The position numbers and the translations under genes were made by a program. DNA of 64,000 bases from Desulfobacula sp. (lineage in GTDB: Bacteria > Desulfobacterota > Desulfobacteria > Desulfobacterales > Desulfobacteraceae), in the NCBI RefSeq assembly GCF_014237455.1, contig NZ_JABZFL010000015.1, forward strand, positions 4,403 to 68,402, in the 5' to 3' direction. Position 1 is the stretch's first letter. The number at the start of each line of letters is the position of its first letter. The notes below the pieces were generated by a model that saw nothing but the letters and a program-made list of their open reading frames with translations, did not search any database and was not told where the DNA came from. Below, piece by piece: positions 24,017 through 47,881 of the stretch.

Positions 24017-24886
24017 TTATTGTACATATGATTCCTTTAATACGTTTTCCAGAGCCTGGGGGATATGTTGGATAATTTCGCCAACCTGGGTTGCAGGGGT
24101 GGGCTTGGCAAAAAACCCGGCAAGGCGGTTAACTTTTGCTGCAATTTTTGCTGCTTTTAAAATTTGCATTCCTGTCCCTGCAAGCGCAGTAACAATGCCT
24201 GTAATCGTATCCCCTGTCCCCCCCATTGCCTCCATGGCTTCCGCTACAGGACTGTCTACAGAAAAAACAATACCACTTTTATCTGCAATAGAGTCTATTG
24301 CTCCTTTAACAAGCAAATTTTTTGCAGCATTTCCATGCAGGTATGCCCGGCTGATAAGATCAGGAACACTATTGTCATCGTGCAGGATAAACCCACGAGT
24401 GTAAAACGGATGAGGCGCGGTTTCATCAGCAAGAAACGAAAGTTCTCCCACATCCGGTGTAAAAAGGTCATAGGCTTGTGCCTGACCGCTCATTTTGGCA
24501 GCATACATAAAACCGGCATCTGCTATCAACACCGGTTTTTTTTCCAAATCATCGAGCATGAACATAATCCGGTTATGCCAGTCTACATCCGGCTGAAGAT
24601 AATGAAATACAATGGTATTAAAATCAATTTGGGGCCCGTTTTCAATCAGGTATTGATACAGTTTGCTGCTGCCGTGGCCAAGCTCTATATCCCCTGCGAT
24701 AAACCCGGTTATATCCGTTGGGCCCAGTACTTTCAAAGTATTGACCATAGCGCCTAAAAGCGCTGGGGTTCCCCGGTTCACCAGGACATGTTTTCCATCA
24801 ATAGTGAGCCTGTTTTCAACCATATCCACCCGGCCCACAGTCAAGGGAAAATTGGGGTCAGGGACTGTTCCTACCACTGCAAGCAT
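24017..24886 (-). CDS. Ribokinase-fold YjeF-C/NAD(P)HX-dehydratase-like protein (selenium-cluster associated)
   Basis: 'VNRGTPAL', 'ADAGFMYAAK', 'FTPDVGELSFLAD', 'LLVKGA.D', 'GGTGDTITG'. Confidence 0.75.
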   Translation of the reverse strand: MLAVVGTVPDPNFPLTVGRVDMVENRLTIDGKHVLVNRGTPALLGAMVNTLKVLGPTDITGFIAGDIELGHGSSKLYQYLIENGPQIDFNTIVFHYLQPDVDWHNRIMFMLDDLEKKPVLIADAGFMYAAKMSGQAQAYDLFTPDVGELSFLADETAPHPFYTRGFILHDDNSVPDLISRAYLHGNAAKNLLVKGAIDSIADKSGIVFSVDSPVAEAMEAMGGTGDTITGIVTALAGTGMQILKAAKIAAKVNRLAGFFAKPTPATQVGEIIQHIPQALENVLKESYVQ

Positions 24887-25419
24887 TTTTTCTGCATCTC
24901 CTTAAAAGCAAGGCCAAGGGCATAGCCGCAGAGGGTATGTCCGATATCCAGTGGATTGGGGGCCTGTGCCATAGTTTTGCCCACCAGTTTGAAAGCAAGA
25001 TACGGCACATCCGGGCAACCGCCTCCGGAAACATTAACGATCAACTGGGTCCTTTTTTCCACAGTAATTTTCATATTGGCAGCCCTGATCATGAGGAACC
25101 GGCCAAAATCCTTTATATGAAAAAGGTCCACCGGCTGGAGCAGGGGATCGGTAACCGGAACTGTCTCTATGGGCGGAATTCCTGCCTTTTCAAGGAGTCG
25201 AAGGATATTGAGCTCCTGGATCAGGGGAAACTCAATCACGAGATCACACCCGCTTTGGATCTCCGGTGGCGGACCCATCACCCTGATTTCCCAGTCATTT
25301 GCCAATAAAATTCTTTGAGCGGCAATGACCTCGCTTGTATTTTCAAACACAAGGATACCCAGTTCTGCCCGGGAAAGATTATCCTGTTTTTTTTCTTTGA
25401 ACAGCTTTAATTTAAACAA
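24871..25419 (-). CDS. DUF3343-domain protein with C-terminal Cys-containing domain
   Basis: 'LVFENTSEVIAAQRIL...PPPEIQSGCDL', then 'SGGGCPD...TLCGY'. TTG start at 25419 after AAGGGG chosen to avoid overlap with yedF. Confidence 0.7.
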   Translation of the reverse strand: MFKLKLFKEKKQDNLSRAELGILVFENTSEVIAAQRILLANDWEIRVMGPPPEIQSGCDLVIEFPLIQELNILRLLEKAGIPPIETVPVTDPLLQPVDLFHIKDFGRFLMIRAANMKITVEKRTQLIVNVSGGGCPDVPYLAFKLVGKTMAQAPNPLDIGHTLCGYALGLAFKEMQKKCLQW

Positions 25420-25435
25420 AATGCCCCTTACGTCA

Positions 25436-25654
25436 TTAGTCCTTTGCAATGGTAATTTGGTATTCATCCCCCTGCTGCTGGATATCCGTGACAGTGTATT
25501 TTTTGCTTTCCGCAGCCCTTGAGACATTCTCTTTTGAAGCATCCGTATCCACCAGCACAATTATCGTGCTTTCATTCCCTGATTTAACGGCTTCCATAAA
25601 CATTAACACTGGCTGAGGACATGAAAGCCCTCTTGCATCAATCGTTATACTCAC
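25436..25654 (-). CDS. yedF: TusA/SirA-like sulfur/selenium carrier
   Basis: 'IDARGLSCPQPV', 72 aa, directly downstream of yedE. Confidence 0.85.
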   Translation of the reverse strand: MSITIDARGLSCPQPVLMFMEAVKSGNESTIIVLVDTDASKENVSRAAESKKYTVTDIQQQGDEYQITIAKD

Positions 25655-25656
25655 GG

Positions 25657-26751
25657 TTATACTCCTTTGATATTTTTTCTCATTGTAAATCCGATAAACA
25701 GGCAGACGACAAGACCGACTGCTACAGCAGCAATTCCATGGGGACCGACACCTTTGGGTGAACTTGCCAGTCCGAAATTATGCGCAAAGGCTGCGCCCGT
25801 AATCATCCCAAGGACAAAGACGGCTGCATCACCATCCCCTTCACCGGAAAGAAACAACTGACGTCCGGGACATCCTCCTGCCAGGGCAAAAGCAAGGCCT
25901 GCAAGCACCATTCCTGCAAAATTCCAGACCTGCATGGTATGAGCAACCGGCTGTCCTTCAAAGCCGGGATTGAACTGGCCCAGAACAAGATTTGCAGCAA
26001 ATGCGAACAGTGCAAGAGAAATCAATCCCGTTAAAAGATGAACATGGCGAAACAGGATCAGGTCACGAAAAGCACCCATGGTACAGAACCGGCTTCTCTG
26101 GGCTGCAAACCCGATCACAAGCCCGATCACAAGGGATATAAATAATGGTGCATGCATGGCCCCGGGACCTTTAAGGCTGTATAACAAAACCCCGCTTTTA
26201 TTTTCTCCTGCCACCTGGGGGTAAAGAAACATCAGGCATAAAAAACCCAGCATGATAAGCGGGAACAACAGGCCGACACTTTTATGGGTTGCCTGGCTTC
26301 TGCCCAGGTTGTACCCGTTTTTTAAAAATAGAACACCGATCCAGATCCCCCCTGCTAGTCCCAGCAGGCCAATAATGGCATTGCCATCCCCACCGGCAAG
26401 GCGAAGCAGGGCACGCCAGGGGCAGCCTAAAAAAACCAGGGCTCCGATCATGGCAAAAACACCCAGAATAAACCTGGCAATGGGTGCAGATCCGCTACGG
26501 GGTTTAAATTCCTTAAAAGTTAATGCCGCAATTAAAGAGCCTAAAACAAAGCCAATAATCTCCGGACGTATATATTGCACCACGCCTACCCTGTGAAGCC
26601 CTAAGGCTCCTGCAATATCCCTTTCAAAGCATGCCACACAGATCCCCATGTTTCCCGGATTTCCCATTTTCTGCAAAATGCCTGCAAAAATACCGATAAC
26701 CGCGCCAACACAGATAATTCCCCAACGACCAGCAAAAAAGTTCTTAGTCAT
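25657..26751 (-). CDS. yedE: YedE/YeeE-family putative selenium transporter
   Basis: 'GNPGNMGICVACF.RDIAG', 'FLGCPWR', 'RSRFCTMG', 'LAGGCPGRQL'; multi-TM. Confidence 0.88.
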   Translation of the reverse strand: MTKNFFAGRWGIICVGAVIGIFAGILQKMGNPGNMGICVACFERDIAGALGLHRVGVVQYIRPEIIGFVLGSLIAALTFKEFKPRSGSAPIARFILGVFAMIGALVFLGCPWRALLRLAGGDGNAIIGLLGLAGGIWIGVLFLKNGYNLGRSQATHKSVGLLFPLIMLGFLCLMFLYPQVAGENKSGVLLYSLKGPGAMHAPLFISLVIGLVIGFAAQRSRFCTMGAFRDLILFRHVHLLTGLISLALFAFAANLVLGQFNPGFEGQPVAHTMQVWNFAGMVLAGLAFALAGGCPGRQLFLSGEGDGDAAVFVLGMITGAAFAHNFGLASSPKGVGPHGIAAVAVGLVVCLFIGFTMRKNIKGV

Positions 26752-35978: not shown

Positions 35979-37154
35979 ATGTCAGAAAAACAATCTTATA
36001 TGTTTACATCTGAATCTGTAACAGAAGGTCATCCTGATAAAGTAGCTGATGCCATATCAGATGGTATTCTTGATGCCATCATGGCGCAAGACAAAAAATG
36101 CAGAGTTGCCTGTGAGACTTTGGTGACCACGGGTCTTGCAATGGTTGCAGGAGAAATTACCACGGATTGCTATGTGGATATTCCCGAAGTTGTCAGAAGT
36201 ACCATCAAAGATATTGGATATAACTCCTCTAATATGGGATTTGACTGGCAGACCTGCTCTGTTGTTACCAGTATTGATCAGCAATCAGTTGATATTGCTC
36301 AGGGCGTTGATGAAGGCGCAGGTCTTTACAAAGAACAGGGTGCCGGTGATCAGGGAATAATGTTCGGGTTTGCCACAAATGAAACCCCGGAACTTATGCC
36401 CATGCCCATTATTTATGCCCATAAATTGACCAAGCGGCTGGCTCAGGTTAGAAAAAACGGTGCTCTTGATTTTCTAAGGCCAGACGGAAAATCTCAGGTG
36501 ACCATTGAATATATGAACGGGGGTCAGCCTAAGAGGGTGGATACGATTGTTGTTTCCACTCAGCATTCCCCTGATGTGTCTTATGGTGATTTAAAAACTG
36601 CCATTATAAAAGAAGTTATTCAAAAGGTGATACCCGAAGAGATGATAGACGGGGACACACGATTTTTTATTAACCCCACAGGGCGGTTTGTTGTGGGCGG
36701 TCCCATGGGAGACTGTGGCGTGACCGGCCGGAAAATCATTGTGGATACCTATGGAGGCAAGGGCAGTCATGGAGGTGGTTGTTTTTCCGGAAAAGATCCT
36801 TCAAAAGTTGACAGGAGCGCATCCTACATGGGAAGATATATTGCAAAGAACCTTGTAGCATCAGGAATTACAGACAAATGCGAGGTTCAGGTGGCCTATG
36901 CAATAGGTGTTGCCCAGCCAGTCTCCCTTTTTGTCGATTTCATGGGAACCGGGAAAATAACGGAATCCAAAGCAATTGAAATCGTTAAAGAGGTGTTTGA
37001 TCTGCGACCTGCTGCAATCATTAGTACCCTTGATCTTCTTCGCCCGATTTACAGGAAGACATCAGCGTACGGACATTTTGGAAGAAAAGATCCTGATTTT
37101 TACTGGGAAAGAACAGACAAGGCAAATCAAATAAAGGATCTGGCCGGACTATAG
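35979..37154 (+). CDS. metK: S-adenosylmethionine synthetase
   Basis: '[13 protein letters not shown]', 'GAGDQG', '[11 protein letters not shown]', '[17 protein letters not shown]'. Confidence 0.98.
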
Positions 37155-37317: not shown

Positions 37318-38763
37318 ATGTTACAATTAAGTAAAGACCCTTCTTATATCGATCTTGACATTAGCTTGAAATACAAAATTAAGGACATCGCCCTTGCAGA
37401 AGAGGGATACAAAGATATGCAGCTTTCAGAGAAAGAGATGCCGGGACTCATGGCGATCAGGGAAAAATATGGACCTGAAAAACCTCTTAAGGGTTTGAAA
37501 ATCATGGGCAGTCTTCATATGACGATTCAGACCGCCATGCTCATTGATACCCTTTATGAGCTGGGGGCTGATATTCGATGGGCCTCCTGCAATATTTTTT
37601 CTACCCAGGATCACGCTGCGGCAGCCATTGCACAAAAAGGATCTGCTGCCGTATTTGCATGGAAAGGAGAAACCCTTGAAGAATTCTGGTGGTGTACAGA
37701 GCAGGCGCTGATCTGGCCGGATGGTTCAGGACCCGACCTGATCGTTGACGATGGGGGGGATGCAACCCTTTATGTCCACCAGGGTGTGAAAGTGGAAAAA
37801 AAGCCTTCTTTGCTGGAGAATAAAACCAACAGCCTGGATGAGAAATGCCTGATGGACCGGATGAAGGTAAGCGTTATGGAAGATCCAAAAAAATGGACTA
37901 ATATTGCCAAAAAGATCCGGGGTGTATCAGAAGAGACAACAACCGGTGTTCACAGACTGTATCAGCTGGCTGAAAAAAATGAACTGCTGTTTCCTGCCAT
38001 TAATGTTAATGATTCCGTGACCAAATCCAAATTTGATAATCTTTACGGATGTAGAGAATCCCTCGCAGACGGGATCAAAAGGGCGACCGATGTCATGCTC
38101 GCAGGCAAAACTATTGTTGTGGCCGGATATGGGGATGTCGGTAAAGGGTGTGCCGCATCCATGAAAGGATATGGCGCTATTGTCTGGGTCACTGAAATTG
38201 ATCCGATCTGCGCACTTCAGGCGGCCATGGAAGGCTACAGGGTAGTGACAATGGAAGAGGCGGCTCCCCATGGGGATATTTTTGTGACAGCCACCGGGAA
38301 TTACCATGTTATTGCAGGCGAACATATTGAACAGATGAAGGATGAATCCATTATCTGTAATATTGGGCATTTTGATAGTGAAATAGAGATGAGTTATCTG
38401 GAGAACAATCCAAAGGCTGTAAAAATAACTATTAAACCCCAGGTGGATAAGTGGACGCTGGAGTCTGGCCGGTCCGTCATAGTTCTTGCTGAAGGAAGAC
38501 TTGTGAACCTGGGTTGTGCAACGGGACACCCAAGCTTTGTGATGAGCAGCAGTTTTTCAAACCAGATTCTGGCCCAGATCAAACTGGCCAGAGAAGATTT
38601 TGAAAACAAAGTCTACACACTGCCAAAGGAGCTTGACGAAGAAGTGGCAAGATTCCACTTGAAAAACCTTTCCGTAAACCTGACCCGGTTGACCCAGGAG
38701 CAGGCGGATTATCTTGGGATTCCCATCAACGGCCCGTTTAAAGCGGAGATTTACAAGTATTGA
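37318..38763 (+). CDS. ahcY: Adenosylhomocysteinase
   Basis: '[10 protein letters not shown]', 'SCNIFSTQD', 'SEETTTGV', '[13 protein letters not shown]', 'GYGDVGKG', 'GHPSFVMS'. Confidence 0.98.
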
Positions 38764-39068
38764 TTTTTTATCAGTTTAAAATTTTGAATCTCTTGTCGTT
38801 ATTTGTTTATTCAATTATTTCAGTATGTTGTAGTTTTATTGAAAAATGAAGGGCCACAGGGGTTCAAAATTTTGAACTTTTTATGTATGGAAAAGCAAAT
38901 GATGTCTTTGTAATTTTTATAAAGCAAAAAAAATAATTTGTTGAATGGGTTGATTAGCAATCGTTTTGCGGTTTGATATAGTTTGATTGAAGGAAATGGC
39001 ATGGGAATTGCTTTATAACTCTTTAACATATAAGAAGATTAATTTTTTCATCTTTTTTTCCTTTTCTT

Positions 39069-39100
39069 AAAAAGGCTGCTTCCCAAAAAGCAGCCTTTTT
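39069..39100. terminator. Bidirectional intrinsic terminator
   Basis: AAAAAGGCTGCT-tcccaaaa-AGCAGCCTTTTT, 44 nt beyond the stop of the minus-strand selenoprotein gene. Confidence 0.85.
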
Positions 39101-39143
39101 AAGTTTTAATCCTGGTCAAAGTGCAAAATCAGTATCAGCAAGT

Positions 39144-39362
39144 CTATTTTTTTATCAGTTTAATGATTTCATCGTTATCGGGAAATCGTTTTGTCTGATG
39201 TTTTGAAAAAACAGTTTTTTCATCCACAATAATGTCATAGATGCCTTTTGAGCCCGGGACCAATCTGGGCGTTATGCCGAATTCCTTTTTTATAATGTCT
39301 GCCAGACCGGCAGCCCGTGGTTCATAGTTTCAGACGGCACAATAATTAATTTTGATATCCAT
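39144..39362 (-). CDS. Rdx (SelW/SelT/SelH) family selenoprotein, CxxU motif, 72 aa (missed by ORF track)
   Basis: ATG 39362 after AAGGGG; MDIKINYCAV-TGA(39332-39330)-NYEPRAAGLADIIKKEFGITPRLVPGSKGIYDIIVDEKTVFSKHQTKRFPDNDEIIKLIKK-TAG. Confidence 0.9.
39299..39313 (-). other. Bacterial SECIS hairpin
   Basis: Minus strand CTGCC-GGTCT-GGCAG; loop begins 21 nt after the UGA; GGUCU loop as in the E. coli fdhF SECIS. Confidence 0.8.
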
Positions 39363-39567
39363 GTGTTTCCCCTTTATTTGTCTGATAGTGTGGATCATGT
39401 TCAAAAATTAAAATAGTCAAATCAGATCTTTACTATAATTTAGAATCGCATGGTTCACAACAGGTTTTATTCTTGGGTGATTTTGTTTAAAAAAAGCTCG
39501 ACATTCACTCAATTTTGTTCTAATGCAAAAAGTAAAAATAAATTTGTTTTTAAGGGAGGCCATCCAC

Positions 39568-40698
39568 ATGCTTTTTCATATGCCGTCAAGACTCTATTTC
39601 GGGTCAGGAGAAATTGGCAGTTTAAAATTAATCGTTGATGAATACTTGAAGGCAGACAATCCGGTTCTTGTGACCGATAAAGGAATCGTTCAGTCTGGTT
39701 TGCTGGAAAAAATATTGCCACAGCTTCCAGAGATCAAAATATTTGATGAGATTGAAGCAAACCCGAAATCCGATACCATTAATAACATTGCAAGGGAGAT
39801 GCGAAAGCTTGCCCCCGACCTGGTTATTGGATTTGGCGGCGGAAGCCCCCTTGATGCAGGAAAGGCCCTTGCCCTGCTTGGGACAAATGACGGCAATATT
39901 GAAGATTATGAAGGGAAAGAGAAATATAAGAATGATCCCTTGCCGTTTCTTGCCATTCCCACAACCTGCGGTACCGGAAGTGAGGTGACCTGGGTTTCGG
40001 TGATTACGGATGTGAATAGGAAATTTAAAATGAGCATCAAGGGTCCCAAAATGTATCCTTCCGTTTCCATTGTCGATCCGGATTTGATTAAAACCCTGCC
40101 GCCGTCAATTATTGCCTCCACAGGCCTTGATGCATTGACCCATGCAGTGGAAGCCTATCTGTCCAAACCGGCCACCCTTATTACGGATAATCATGCAGCC
40201 AGGGCGGTTAAATTAATATTAGGCGCCATTGAAGGAGCATATGATGATATTGAAAATCATCATGCAGACCGTGAGGACCTGATGTTTGGCTCAACCATCG
40301 CAGGATTTGCATTTGGCAACTCTGATGTAACAGCCGTCCATTGTATCTCCGAATCCATTGGCGCTTTGTATGATATTCCCCATGGTGTGGCAAATTCAAT
40401 CTTTTTGCCATATGTGCTTTCCTATAACCTGCCCGAATGCTTTGAAAAAATGGCAACACTGGCAAGGCAGGCAGGGATTAACGAAACTGACGACATGAGA
40501 GCATCCATGGCCTTTATTCAATTGATAAAGGATTTGTCAAAGAGACTTGGGATTCCTTTGTTTAAGGATTTGAAAATTGGAAAAGATCAATTTGAGAAGA
40601 TTGCAGAGATGTCGTTTGAAAATAATTCCAATCTATCAAATCCAAGAGAACTTGGATGGGAGGATTACCTTAAAATACTTGAAAATGCGTATGAATAG
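39568..40698 (+). CDS. Iron-containing alcohol dehydrogenase
   Basis: 'GFGGGSPLDAGK', 'AIPTTCGTGSEVT', 'DALTHAVEAY', 'HCISESIG..YDIPHG'. Start placed at ATG 39568 after GGGAGG. Confidence 0.93.
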   Translation: MLFHMPSRLYFGSGEIGSLKLIVDEYLKADNPVLVTDKGIVQSGLLEKILPQLPEIKIFDEIEANPKSDTINNIAREMRKLAPDLVIGFGGGSPLDAGKALALLGTNDGNIEDYEGKEKYKNDPLPFLAIPTTCGTGSEVTWVSVITDVNRKFKMSIKGPKMYPSVSIVDPDLIKTLPPSIIASTGLDALTHAVEAYLSKPATLITDNHAARAVKLILGAIEGAYDDIENHHADREDLMFGSTIAGFAFGNSDVTAVHCISESIGALYDIPHGVANSIFLPYVLSYNLPECFEKMATLARQAGINETDDMRASMAFIQLIKDLSKRLGIPLFKDLKIGKDQFEKIAEMSFENNSNLSNPRELGWEDYLKILENAYE

Positions 40699-40725: not shown

Positions 40726-41388
40726 TTAATTATCCCGTCTATTCGTGTTACCGACAACAAACTCTTTTATTTTTTTTAGATATGGGATCAATACAATAAT
40801 GACAATGGCAGCAAACAGATACTGGATCATGTGGAAGCGCTGTTCTAAAAAATCAAAGCAGTAAAACCAGACAGCGATGGCCGTCAGAGTACCCAGAAAT
40901 GTGGCGGTAAAATTTTTGAACAGGCTTAACCTGAGCATATATCCGATAATAGATCCCACCACAGGTCCGGTTACCGGGAGGGGGGCCATGACAAAGATAA
41001 AAATGCCGATCCATCCAAAGGGTTTTATTTTGTCTTTTTGTTCAATAGCTTTTCCAGTCAGCCGGGCCATGAATTTAATTATCCATTCGTTCCTTAGATA
41101 ATTGGTGGTGCTTAATACAAATCCGGCATAGGTGAAACAGACGATAAGCACCTCAATATAAAAATTATATAAAATGGTGGGAAAGGCACCAAATCCATTG
41201 AGAATGCACAAGCCAATGCCGGCGGCCCGGCCACCGACGGTATGGGCAATAAAAACAAGGACAAGGGTTTTTGCTATGTGAAGATCGGTGATACCATAGA
41301 ATCCGATAAAAACCATGAGCAGAGCACTTAAAAAAAATCCGCTTAACAGCAGTCTGCCCTCAATGGTATTTAACAGGGTATGCTTCAT
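40726..41388 (-). CDS. Small multi-drug export (COG2426-like) membrane protein
   Basis: Multi-TM; 'GIFIFVMAPLPVTGPVVGSIIG..L'. Confidence 0.65.
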   Translation of the reverse strand: MKHTLLNTIEGRLLLSGFFLSALLMVFIGFYGITDLHIAKTLVLVFIAHTVGGRAAGIGLCILNGFGAFPTILYNFYIEVLIVCFTYAGFVLSTTNYLRNEWIIKFMARLTGKAIEQKDKIKPFGWIGIFIFVMAPLPVTGPVVGSIIGYMLRLSLFKNFTATFLGTLTAIAVWFYCFDFLEQRFHMIQYLFAAIVIIVLIPYLKKIKEFVVGNTNRRDN

Positions 41389-45915: not shown

Positions 45916-47881
45916 ATCGGGTAGCCGGGGGTTTTAATCCCCCAGCCCCCACAACACCCTGCATGCGGGTCCGCACAGGGCGTTTCATCAAGATTACCGG
46001 GCTGTGGCCGGGTAATGTATTTTCACCCACTGTTCTTTGACAGATATTAACCCTTGTTCAGATAGCCATTTGTTTGTCATACCGGCCTGTGTTGCCATGG
46101 TTCTGGACAGATGCCATGGCCCTCTTCGGCTGAGGGATGTCATGATTGCCTCTCTTTTGTAGGTGCCTAATTTGAGAAGATTTCGGACTTTGGTACGGGT
46201 ATACCGCCATTGTTTCCAGTAGCACATCCGTGTCCGGCGGCGAAGCCATTCGTCTATTCCCGGAATTGGTCGGTAGTATTCCGATATCCCGTAATAGTTC
46301 ATCCAACCCCGGATATATTCCGCTAACTTCTTGTATCGGTGCTCCATAGAGACAAACCAGCTCCTTCCGGTAAACAGGCGTAACCGCCGCTTAAATTCCA
46401 GAAAGGATTTATCACTCCATCTGATTTTGCCATTTACAAATACAAAACCAAGAAAACCGCATTCTTCCACTGGTGCCACCTTGCTCTTCTTCTCGTTGAC
46501 TTTGAGTTGAAGCTTTAGCTCAAGGAACCGACGTATACTTGCCATCACCCGTTTGCCGGCACTCAGGCTTTTCACCATAATGATGAAATCATCTGCATAC
46601 CGGACAAAATGGTGGCCTCGTTTTTCCAGTTCCTTGTCAAGGTCATCAAGAAGGATATTAGCGAGCAAAGGTGAAAGTGGGCCTCCCTGGGGAACACCCG
46701 TAGGAGTTGCCTGAAGGCGGCCTTTGACCACAACACCGGCCCTGAGATATTTACCGATAAGCTTCAGTACTCGCTTATCTTGTATCTGGCGGGATACTCT
46801 ATTCATCAAGACATCGTGATTAACTTTATCGAAAAATTTCGACAAATCAGTATCAACGGCCACTTTGTAGCCCTGCCCTATGAATTGTTTTACCTGCCGG
46901 ACACCATCATGGGCCGATCTGCCAGGCCTGAAACCGCAACTTGATTCCGAAAACAAGGGATCAAATATTAACCCCATAACCTGGGCAATGGCTTGTTGGA
47001 TCGTTCTATCCAGCACGGTTGGGATACCCAGGGGACGTTTACTTCCATCCGGTTTTGGTATTTCAACCCTTAGAACAGGAGAAGGGATATATGTCCCTTC
47101 AAAAAGGTCTGAACGTATCTTAGGCCATAACTCACGAAAGGCGTCCGGAAATTGCTCAACGGTTACACCGTCGATTCCAGGGGCACCCTTGTTGGCCCGC
47201 ACCTGTTTCCAGGCACGACGTATATTCTCTGCCGAAAGAATACGTTCCAGTAGATGATTCTTTGAAAAAGGTACTTCCACAGCGCGCTTGTAAATTACTC
47301 CTCCATTCGGATTCACGGTATATACAAAGCTCATGGATACCTCCTTTTCGTTTGATGTTCTGTCCTTCACCCTGTCCGGGGCATTACTCCCGGCGTTTGG
47401 CTACTATGACGTCTGCTGACTTCTGCTTCATCACTAATCAGGTTACCCTGACCAGCGCAATGAAACTTCTTTTGCAGGTGTTGCCCATTGTTCGTGTCTC
47501 ATCACCGTCGGCAACAGCCGGTGATGCCTGGACCTTGGTTTCCCGGTATGGTCCGAGCCGGGAGTTGTTGCAAAAGATGCTCAATGCATGCAAGGCAGAT
47601 CTCCCCGGATAAGAGCGTGAACTGTCACTACACAACCGCAGCATTTACCCTGTCTCTTGAATCCTGGGCTTTGTCATGTTGTGCTGACTTACCCGGAGAC
47701 CAGGCCTTATATGCTGTTTCTGTTCGTCGGCTCATAGTTTTGCACTCCAACTTCCTTCGGACGGTTCCTCACAGTTCCGCCCTTGTTTTCGGCTAATACT
47801 TGTGTTAACAAAAACATATGCTAACAGGACTCACGTATAGGGGACTTGCACCCCATAAGTTCACGCCCATGCCGGGCGTAC
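45916..47881 (-). mobile_element. Group II intron, class IIC-attC, inserted in the bottom strand of attC2
   Basis: 5' end GTACGCCCGGCATGGGCG (G at 47881); domain V with CGC triad at 45953-45984; domain VI ending ACCCGAT at 45916; flanks rejoin into an attC. Confidence 0.9.
45994..47370 (-). CDS. ltrA: Group II intron reverse transcriptase/maturase (no endonuclease domain)
   Basis: RT0 'NKGAPGIDG', 'RPLGIPTVLDR', 'GVPQGGPLSPLLANI', 'YADD', X domain 'GWMNYY'. Confidence 0.95.
   Translation of the reverse strand: MKDRTSNEKEVSMSFVYTVNPNGGVIYKRAVEVPFSKNHLLERILSAENIRRAWKQVRANKGAPGIDGVTVEQFPDAFRELWPKIRSDLFEGTYIPSPVLRVEIPKPDGSKRPLGIPTVLDRTIQQAIAQVMGLIFDPLFSESSCGFRPGRSAHDGVRQVKQFIGQGYKVAVDTDLSKFFDKVNHDVLMNRVSRQIQDKRVLKLIGKYLRAGVVVKGRLQATPTGVPQGGPLSPLLANILLDDLDKELEKRGHHFVRYADDFIIMVKSLSAGKRVMASIRRFLELKLQLKVNEKKSKVAPVEECGFLGFVFVNGKIRWSDKSFLEFKRRLRLFTGRSWFVSMEHRYKKLAEYIRGWMNYYGISEYYRPIPGIDEWLRRRTRMCYWKQWRYTRTKVRNLLKLGTYKREAIMTSLSRRGPWHLSRTMATQAGMTNKWLSEQGLISVKEQWVKIHYPATAR

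Follow-up and report, generated by a model that had tools for sequence, protein, structure and literature searches.

The window analysed in this study, a 64,000-nt stretch of a Desulfobacula sp. contig, carries metK (35979-37154, plus strand) and ahcY (37318-38763, plus strand), followed after a gap by an Fe-ADH gene (39523-40698, plus strand) and a gene for an Sm_multidrug_ex protein (40726-41388, minus strand). A preliminary description of this DNA had proposed that a minus-strand selenoprotein gene is hidden in the gap between ahcY and the Fe-ADH gene, and all the sequence features that it had listed were recovered. An ATG...TAG frame runs on the minus strand from 39362 to 39144 (ATG 39362-39360, TAG 39146-39144) and encodes a 72-residue product when a TGA is read through (MDIKINYCAVUNYEPRAAGLADIIKKEFGITPRLVPGSKGIYDIIVDEKTVFSKHQTKRFPDNDEIIKLIKK, with TGA translated as U). 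This SelW-like/Rdx selenoprotein coding sequence was delimited using its translation, HMM matches, homologs and an AlphaFold2 (AF2) model; the table 11 ORF list contains only a 39-aa fragment at 39362..39144. The Rdx-type start reads MDIKINYCAV-U-NYEPRA and so contains the claimed IKINYCAV-U-NYEPRA, with the in-frame TGA at 39332-39330 (39330..39332, minus strand) as codon 11. This codon was assigned as the U of CxxU from the sequence, the homolog column and the Rdx structures. The C-terminal pattern FSK....RFP...EI was likewise found in the translated product.

The ribosome-binding site of the earlier claim corresponds to the Shine-Dalgarno sequence AAAGGGGAAA (39375-39366, minus strand), which lies 6 nt upstream of the ATG, and a purine-rich stretch resembling a Shine-Dalgarno sequence also precedes the start codon in relatives. 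Further upstream, a motif scan gave a weak promoter-like site, TTGTGA-17-TATAGT (39432..39460, minus strand); because four such sites were observed in the region against 3.5 expected by chance, it is treated only as a candidate promoter. The terminator attributed to the gene was also located. It is a bidirectional intrinsic-terminator hairpin at 39066..39103, composed of an A-run, GGCUGCUU...AAGCAGCC and a T-run, which stands 41 nt past the Rdx stop and is kept in four Desulfobacula relatives (alignment A4).

Family membership and predicted fold

The product matched the Pfam Rdx model PF10262 with 66.5 bits (cutoff 22.6), residues 3-72 lying on model positions 2-74 of 74, and the NCBIfam model TIGR02174 (CXXU_selWTH) with 54.1 bits against a cutoff of 34.2. 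The comparison with PF10262 that had been suggested as a check thus returned a whole-model match, accompanied by the match to TIGR02174. The Campylobacter-type equivalog NF041051 (SelTWH_Campy) was not reached, with 83.7 bits where the cutoff is 88; since this score is just below the cutoff, the Desulfobacula gene is placed in a sister subgroup and is not assigned to NF041051.

The AF2 model was built on 46 homologs and reached a pLDDT of 95.4, with the predicted elements E3-8, H14-28, E33-37, E42-46, E49-53 and H63-71. In the C8-A-V-U11 motif, neither C8 nor position 11 varies among the 46 aligned sequences, and the motif is placed by the model between strand 3-8 and helix 14-28. The predicted structure is a thioredoxin-like beta1-alpha1-beta2-beta3-beta4-alpha2 fold, in which Cys8-x-x-Sec11 occupies the beta1/alpha1 loop. 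The top 21 PDB matches of the model were all bacterial SelW-related/Rdx structures, followed by MIEN1 and SelW and then by thioredoxins at a TM of about 0.55. A sequence search of solved proteins retrieved 3dex, 2ljk (MIEN1) and 2fa8, and weakly 2npb (SelW).

The best structural matches were Cys-type Rdx proteins, namely, Atu0228 (2fa8), SAV_2001 (3dex) and the proteins of Bordetella (2ojl), Pseudomonas (2obk, 2oka) and Vibrio (2p0g), with TM 0.90-0.93 and an rmsd of about 1.1 Å. Residue 11 aligned with the second Cys of CxxC in the solved Rdx proteins, so that their CxxC corresponds to CxxU here, and the PRAAxLA helix start is common to both. The Cys-type proteins differ in carrying Cys for Sec, in having no SECIS, in their deposited length of about 104-108 aa and in sequence, at 23-29% identity. 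Mammalian selenoprotein W (2npb, CxxU) and MIEN1/C17orf37 (2ljk, CxxC) show the same loop and the thioredoxin-like Rdx fold but are more distant (TM 0.65-0.78). Eukaryotic SelW depends on a 3'-UTR SECIS with SBP2/eEFSec, not on an in-ORF hairpin with SelB (PMC10778597).

Homologs and the SECIS hairpin

Homologs were collected from two samples. The relatives sample, 60 related genomes searched together with the window's own genome, gave homologs in 26 other genomes of the genus Desulfobacula or the same order; each of the 25 complete homologs contains a single in-frame TGA, and N-masking affects one further locus. The phylum sample consisted of 400 other Desulfobacterota genomes under even sampling, of which 67 contained a homolog, in 62 cases in the TGA form. 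The preliminary description had made its reading depend on whether homologs align Sec or Cys at the TGA. The TGA was found in the CxxU column at 55/55 complete homologous loci examined, and the five TGA-less homologs of the phylum sample have Cys in that column (FCGVC, YCTQC). The gene was absent from 10 of the 36 other genomes of the genus, including a closed genome of 5.2 Mb and several genomes at 99-100% completeness, and is therefore dispensable; it has been lost repeatedly in the genus and is not essential.

A hairpin CTGCC-GGTCT-GGCAG lies downstream of the TGA at 39313-39299 (39299..39313, minus strand) and spans codons 17-22. It consists of a 5-bp stem (CUGCC 39313-39309, GGCAG 39303-39299) and a 5-nt loop (GGUCU 39308-39304) that starts 21 nt after the TGA, and it was assigned as a SECIS minimal hairpin from folding, RNAalifold, pair counts and synonymous-site constraint. 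Folded alone, the hairpin was not significant (z = -0.97), and the argument for a SECIS therefore rests on comparative data. RNAalifold independently predicted the identical helix on the alignment. The stem was paired at 99.2% in 24 sequences and at 97.3% in 52 distinct sequences, against 23-58% in slid controls (at most 58.5%), and none of 500 shuffles matched the observed percentage paired or the covariation score. A few homologs show a single stem mismatch, namely, L029 (U.U) and L047, L050 and L054 (U.C). No Rfam model matched the Rdx gene region.

Among the 52 distinct sequences there were 32 double-change cells, and three stem pairs out of five varied in a compensatory manner. Codons 17 and 21 pair through their third positions, which are synonymous sites, and this pair appears as U-A (25), C-G (20), A-U (4) and U-G (1). 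Position 1 of codon 18 pairs with position 2 of codon 21, and in seven sequences U-A (Ser/Glu) has replaced G-C (Ala/Ala) there, Ala18 GCC becoming UCC (Ser) together with Ala21 GCN becoming GAG (Glu) (alignment A2, columns 31/41). Because the joint replacements of Ala18 by Ser and Ala21 by Glu keep the SECIS pair, RNA pairing drives paired amino-acid changes at these positions. Three homologs with 'ASSLAA' break this pair. Within the genus, third-position entropy was about 0.2 bits on average in codons 17-21, and four-fold sites elsewhere had about 1.4 bits. The loop variants were GGUCU (26), AGUUU (8), AGUCU (6), AGGCU (5), GGGCU (4), CGUGU (2) and CGGGU (1), and loop position 2 is G in all 52 sequences. 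In bacterial SECIS elements the apical loop lies 16-37 nt from the UGA (PMC10778597) and is small and contains a G (PMC1088965), and hairpins of 5/6 bp occur in Fdh, SelD and SelW of Epsilonproteobacteria (PMC4607533). The Rdx hairpin agrees in distance, in the G of its small loop and in stem length. The SECIS hairpin of the preliminary description, with its loop 21 nt downstream of the TGA, is thus in place, covarying and in line with the published criteria.

The part of the gene upstream of the TGA also bears the marks of a coding region. In codons 1-10 the amino acids are kept and the third positions vary, with an entropy of 1.2-1.5 bits at I3, I5, S9 and V10; this constraint as protein with free third positions shows that the region upstream of the TGA is translated in frame. 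These data bear on an alternative in which codons 1-10 are an untranslated leader and only the part after the TGA is made, as a product of about 50-55 aa from an internal codon around Leu20. Public entries of this form exist, P0023, P0026 and P0028 with 53-55 aa under the name 'Rdx family protein' and P0029 with 45 aa. Such a product would be without beta1 and without CxxU, the sole known functional motif of the Rdx family, and it would leave unexplained a leader conserved as protein while its synonymous sites vary. The Shine-Dalgarno sequence precedes the ATG at 39362 and not the internal start, and the supposed internal start falls within the conserved hairpin. We consider this alternative very unlikely.

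Selenocysteine decoding and proposed function

The source genome (3.48 Mb, 113 contigs) was searched for the selenium machinery, the presence of which had been named as a check. A tRNA-Sec was detected with 76.5 bits and anticodon TCA and was confirmed by ARAGORN; selA (597 bits), selB (346 bits) and selD (371 bits) were found as well, and all four sel genes, selA, selB, selC and selD, are above curated cutoffs in this one genome. The selD gene (L018 1477-2526, G000:C37) is itself a selenoprotein gene with an in-frame TGA (…KASGU AAK…). Its SECIS has 7-8 bp and a 5-nt loop, GGACG, lying 19 nt downstream of the UGA, and is comparable to the Rdx element. In the window, a cluster on the minus strand (24017-26751) comprises genes for YedE-like (Sulf_transp), TusA/YedF, Se_S_carrier (DUF3343) and Carb_kinase-fold proteins; this selenium/sulfur-handling unit is consistent with a selenium-using organism.

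TGA is the ordinary stop of 13 of the 50 long ORFs in the window, and the genetic code is therefore not reassigned. Three long window ORFs that remain open for 66-88 codons past a TGA were considered as further selenoproteins and rejected, as they have no Cys/Sec-type context and one of them is antisense to ahcY. The use of TGA as a stop is relevant to a second alternative, in which the TGA is read not as Sec but as Trp, Cys or Gly through a reassigned code or near-cognate suppression, a reading that several metagenome-derived entries with W at position 11 might seem to favour. TGA terminates several Rdx homologs themselves in addition to the 13 window ORFs, which rules out a reassignment of the code 4/25 type, and the genome contains a dedicated tRNA-Sec with selA, selB and selD. 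Position 11 moreover coincides in alignment with the catalytic CxxC cysteine, so that Trp would destroy the motif. Decoding as an ordinary amino acid is accordingly judged highly improbable, and the W at position 11 in database entries is best explained as a gene-caller artefact. The least credible alternative, a pseudogene in which a Cys-type Rdx was inactivated by a TGT/TGC-to-TGA nonsense mutation, which a lone in-frame stop in one sequence would resemble if fresh, is effectively refuted by the comparative data. The TGA is shared by 25 homologs of the genus/order sample and by 62 other genomes of the phylum sample, at protein identities as low as about 30%, and the homologs have no other stops or frameshifts. 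Purifying selection acts on the remainder of the gene, the TGA is followed by a covarying SECIS and the Sec machinery is complete.

We are highly confident that this Desulfobacula locus is a real and functional gene, the product of which is a minimal SelW-like bacterial selenoprotein of 72 aa that belongs to the Rdx family. From the established bacterial Sec pathway, all components of which are present in the genome, we infer SelB-dependent insertion of Sec at codon 11. The ribosome would meet the UGA at codon 11 with the hairpin downstream in codons 17-22 of the mRNA, and the SelB-GTP-Sec-tRNASec complex would bind the hairpin loop, Sec being inserted in place of termination. The resulting selenoprotein is most likely a small thiol/selenol oxidoreductase, judging from its fold and motif only. 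It would alternate between reduced Cys-SH/Sec-SeH and a Cys8-Sec11 selenenylsulfide, and would reduce a disulfide or an oxidised-thiol substrate. To our knowledge, no substrate or reductant is known for any bacterial Rdx family member, and the function of these proteins is not revealed by the Desulfobacula gene.

Bacterial SelW-like selenoproteins were reportedly described by Zhang, Gladyshev and co-workers, for example in Desulfotalea psychrophila, Geobacter sulfurreducens and Campylobacter. The Desulfobacula gene shares with them the HMM family, the CxxU motif, an in-ORF SECIS just after the UGA and the small size, and does not differ from them in kind, with the NF041051 score remaining below its cutoff. 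In the Sargasso Sea data, no selenoprotein family was more abundant than the SelW-like CxxU proteins, with 48 sequences (PMC1088965). Desulfotalea psychrophila and Geobacter sulfurreducens, both deltaproteobacteria, have been listed as carrying such proteins, with Sec apparently the original form, and Sec forms outnumber Cys forms in Sec-using lineages, as they do here (PMC1794560).

The preliminary description had also expected standard callers to miss or truncate the gene, and this is borne out by the public records of its relatives, which take two forms. One is a full-length protein in which W stands at position 11 (TGA-as-Trp); the other, from NCBI and JGI, has 45-55 aa, starts after the TGA and is without CxxU, under the names 'Rdx family protein' (NCBI) or 'selT/selW/selH-like putative selenoprotein' (JGI). 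Bacterial SelW-like genes are likewise often missed or truncated in annotation, and the same problem has been reported for the SelW genes of Epsilonproteobacteria (PMC4607533). The family, the CxxU motif, the SECIS and the frequent mis-annotation are already published (PMC1088965, PMC1794560, PMC4607533), and the Desulfobacula gene is an annotation fix within a family of bacterial selenoproteins that was recognised twenty years ago, not a discovery. The chief value of the present analysis is thus correct annotation, as public relatives lack the active site or show Trp at the Sec position. Because relatives are mis-recorded in this way, the selenoproteomes of Desulfobacula and other Desulfobacterota MAGs are counted too low. 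The data set also provides a clean teaching example of a SECIS within a coding region.

Gene neighbourhood

In Desulfobacula-type loci, the gene is convergent to metK-ahcY in 16 of 22 and has Fe-ADH upstream in 8 of 22; an Sm_multidrug_ex gene replaces the upstream Fe-ADH in other loci of this type. The divergent promoter region that the preliminary description saw as shared with the Fe-ADH gene is therefore present as an arrangement here but is not conserved, and it says nothing on function and is a local accident. Convergence with metK-ahcY was not seen elsewhere in the phylum, unlike the features held in common with other bacterial SelW-like genes, and neither ahcY/metK nor Fe-ADH was a neighbour in any of the 30 loci examined outside the genus. 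Across the 22 genus loci and these 30 loci, the search for a conserved partner gene gave no general neighbour; since neighbours vary among loci, gene context provides no functional lead. The neighbours in the 30 outside loci included an EI24/CysZ-like membrane protein in six and a YggS-like PLP protein in five. In the six loci L062-L065, L069 and L074, the EI24/CysZ-family gene is directly downstream on the same strand, 15 nt apart in L064. This Rdx-EI24/CysZ pairing in six non-Desulfobacula Desulfobacterota is possibly a lineage-specific operon.

The spacer of about 380 nt between ahcY and the Rdx gene (38764-39143) shows 82% identity among five Desulfobacula genomes, a high level for a non-coding stretch. 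A 69-aa ORF in it (38820-39029, minus strand) was rejected as a gene, with no Pfam match and with in-frame stops in two relatives. The spacer carries an AT-rich palindrome, TTCAAAATTTTRAA, in two copies at 38775-38788 and 38863-38876, where 0.01 would be expected by chance; the copies sit in the conserved spacer, flanked by the ahcY stop on one side and the Rdx terminator on the other. The 16-mer GTTCAAAATTTTGAAC has no exact copy elsewhere in the 3.48-Mb genome, and two copies with one mismatch lie at G000:C91:29519 and C109:105558. The palindrome may serve as an operator or belong to a small RNA that has escaped annotation.

The convergence in 16 of 22 genus loci, the conserved spacer, the shared bidirectional terminator and the two GTTCAAAATTTTGAAC copies led us to propose a functional tie between the SelW-like selenoprotein and the methyl cycle (metK-ahcY) in Desulfobacula, which we put forward as a long shot. 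For example, the selenoprotein might keep thiols of AhcY or MetK reduced, or the genes might be co-regulated through the GTTCAAAATTTTGAAC palindrome. Were this tie true, a bacterial Rdx protein would for the first time have a physiological partner assigned to it.

Elsewhere in the window, group II intron domains were recognised by Rfam on the minus strand at 45916-47778 (RF02001 with 131.9 bits, RF01998 and RF00029).
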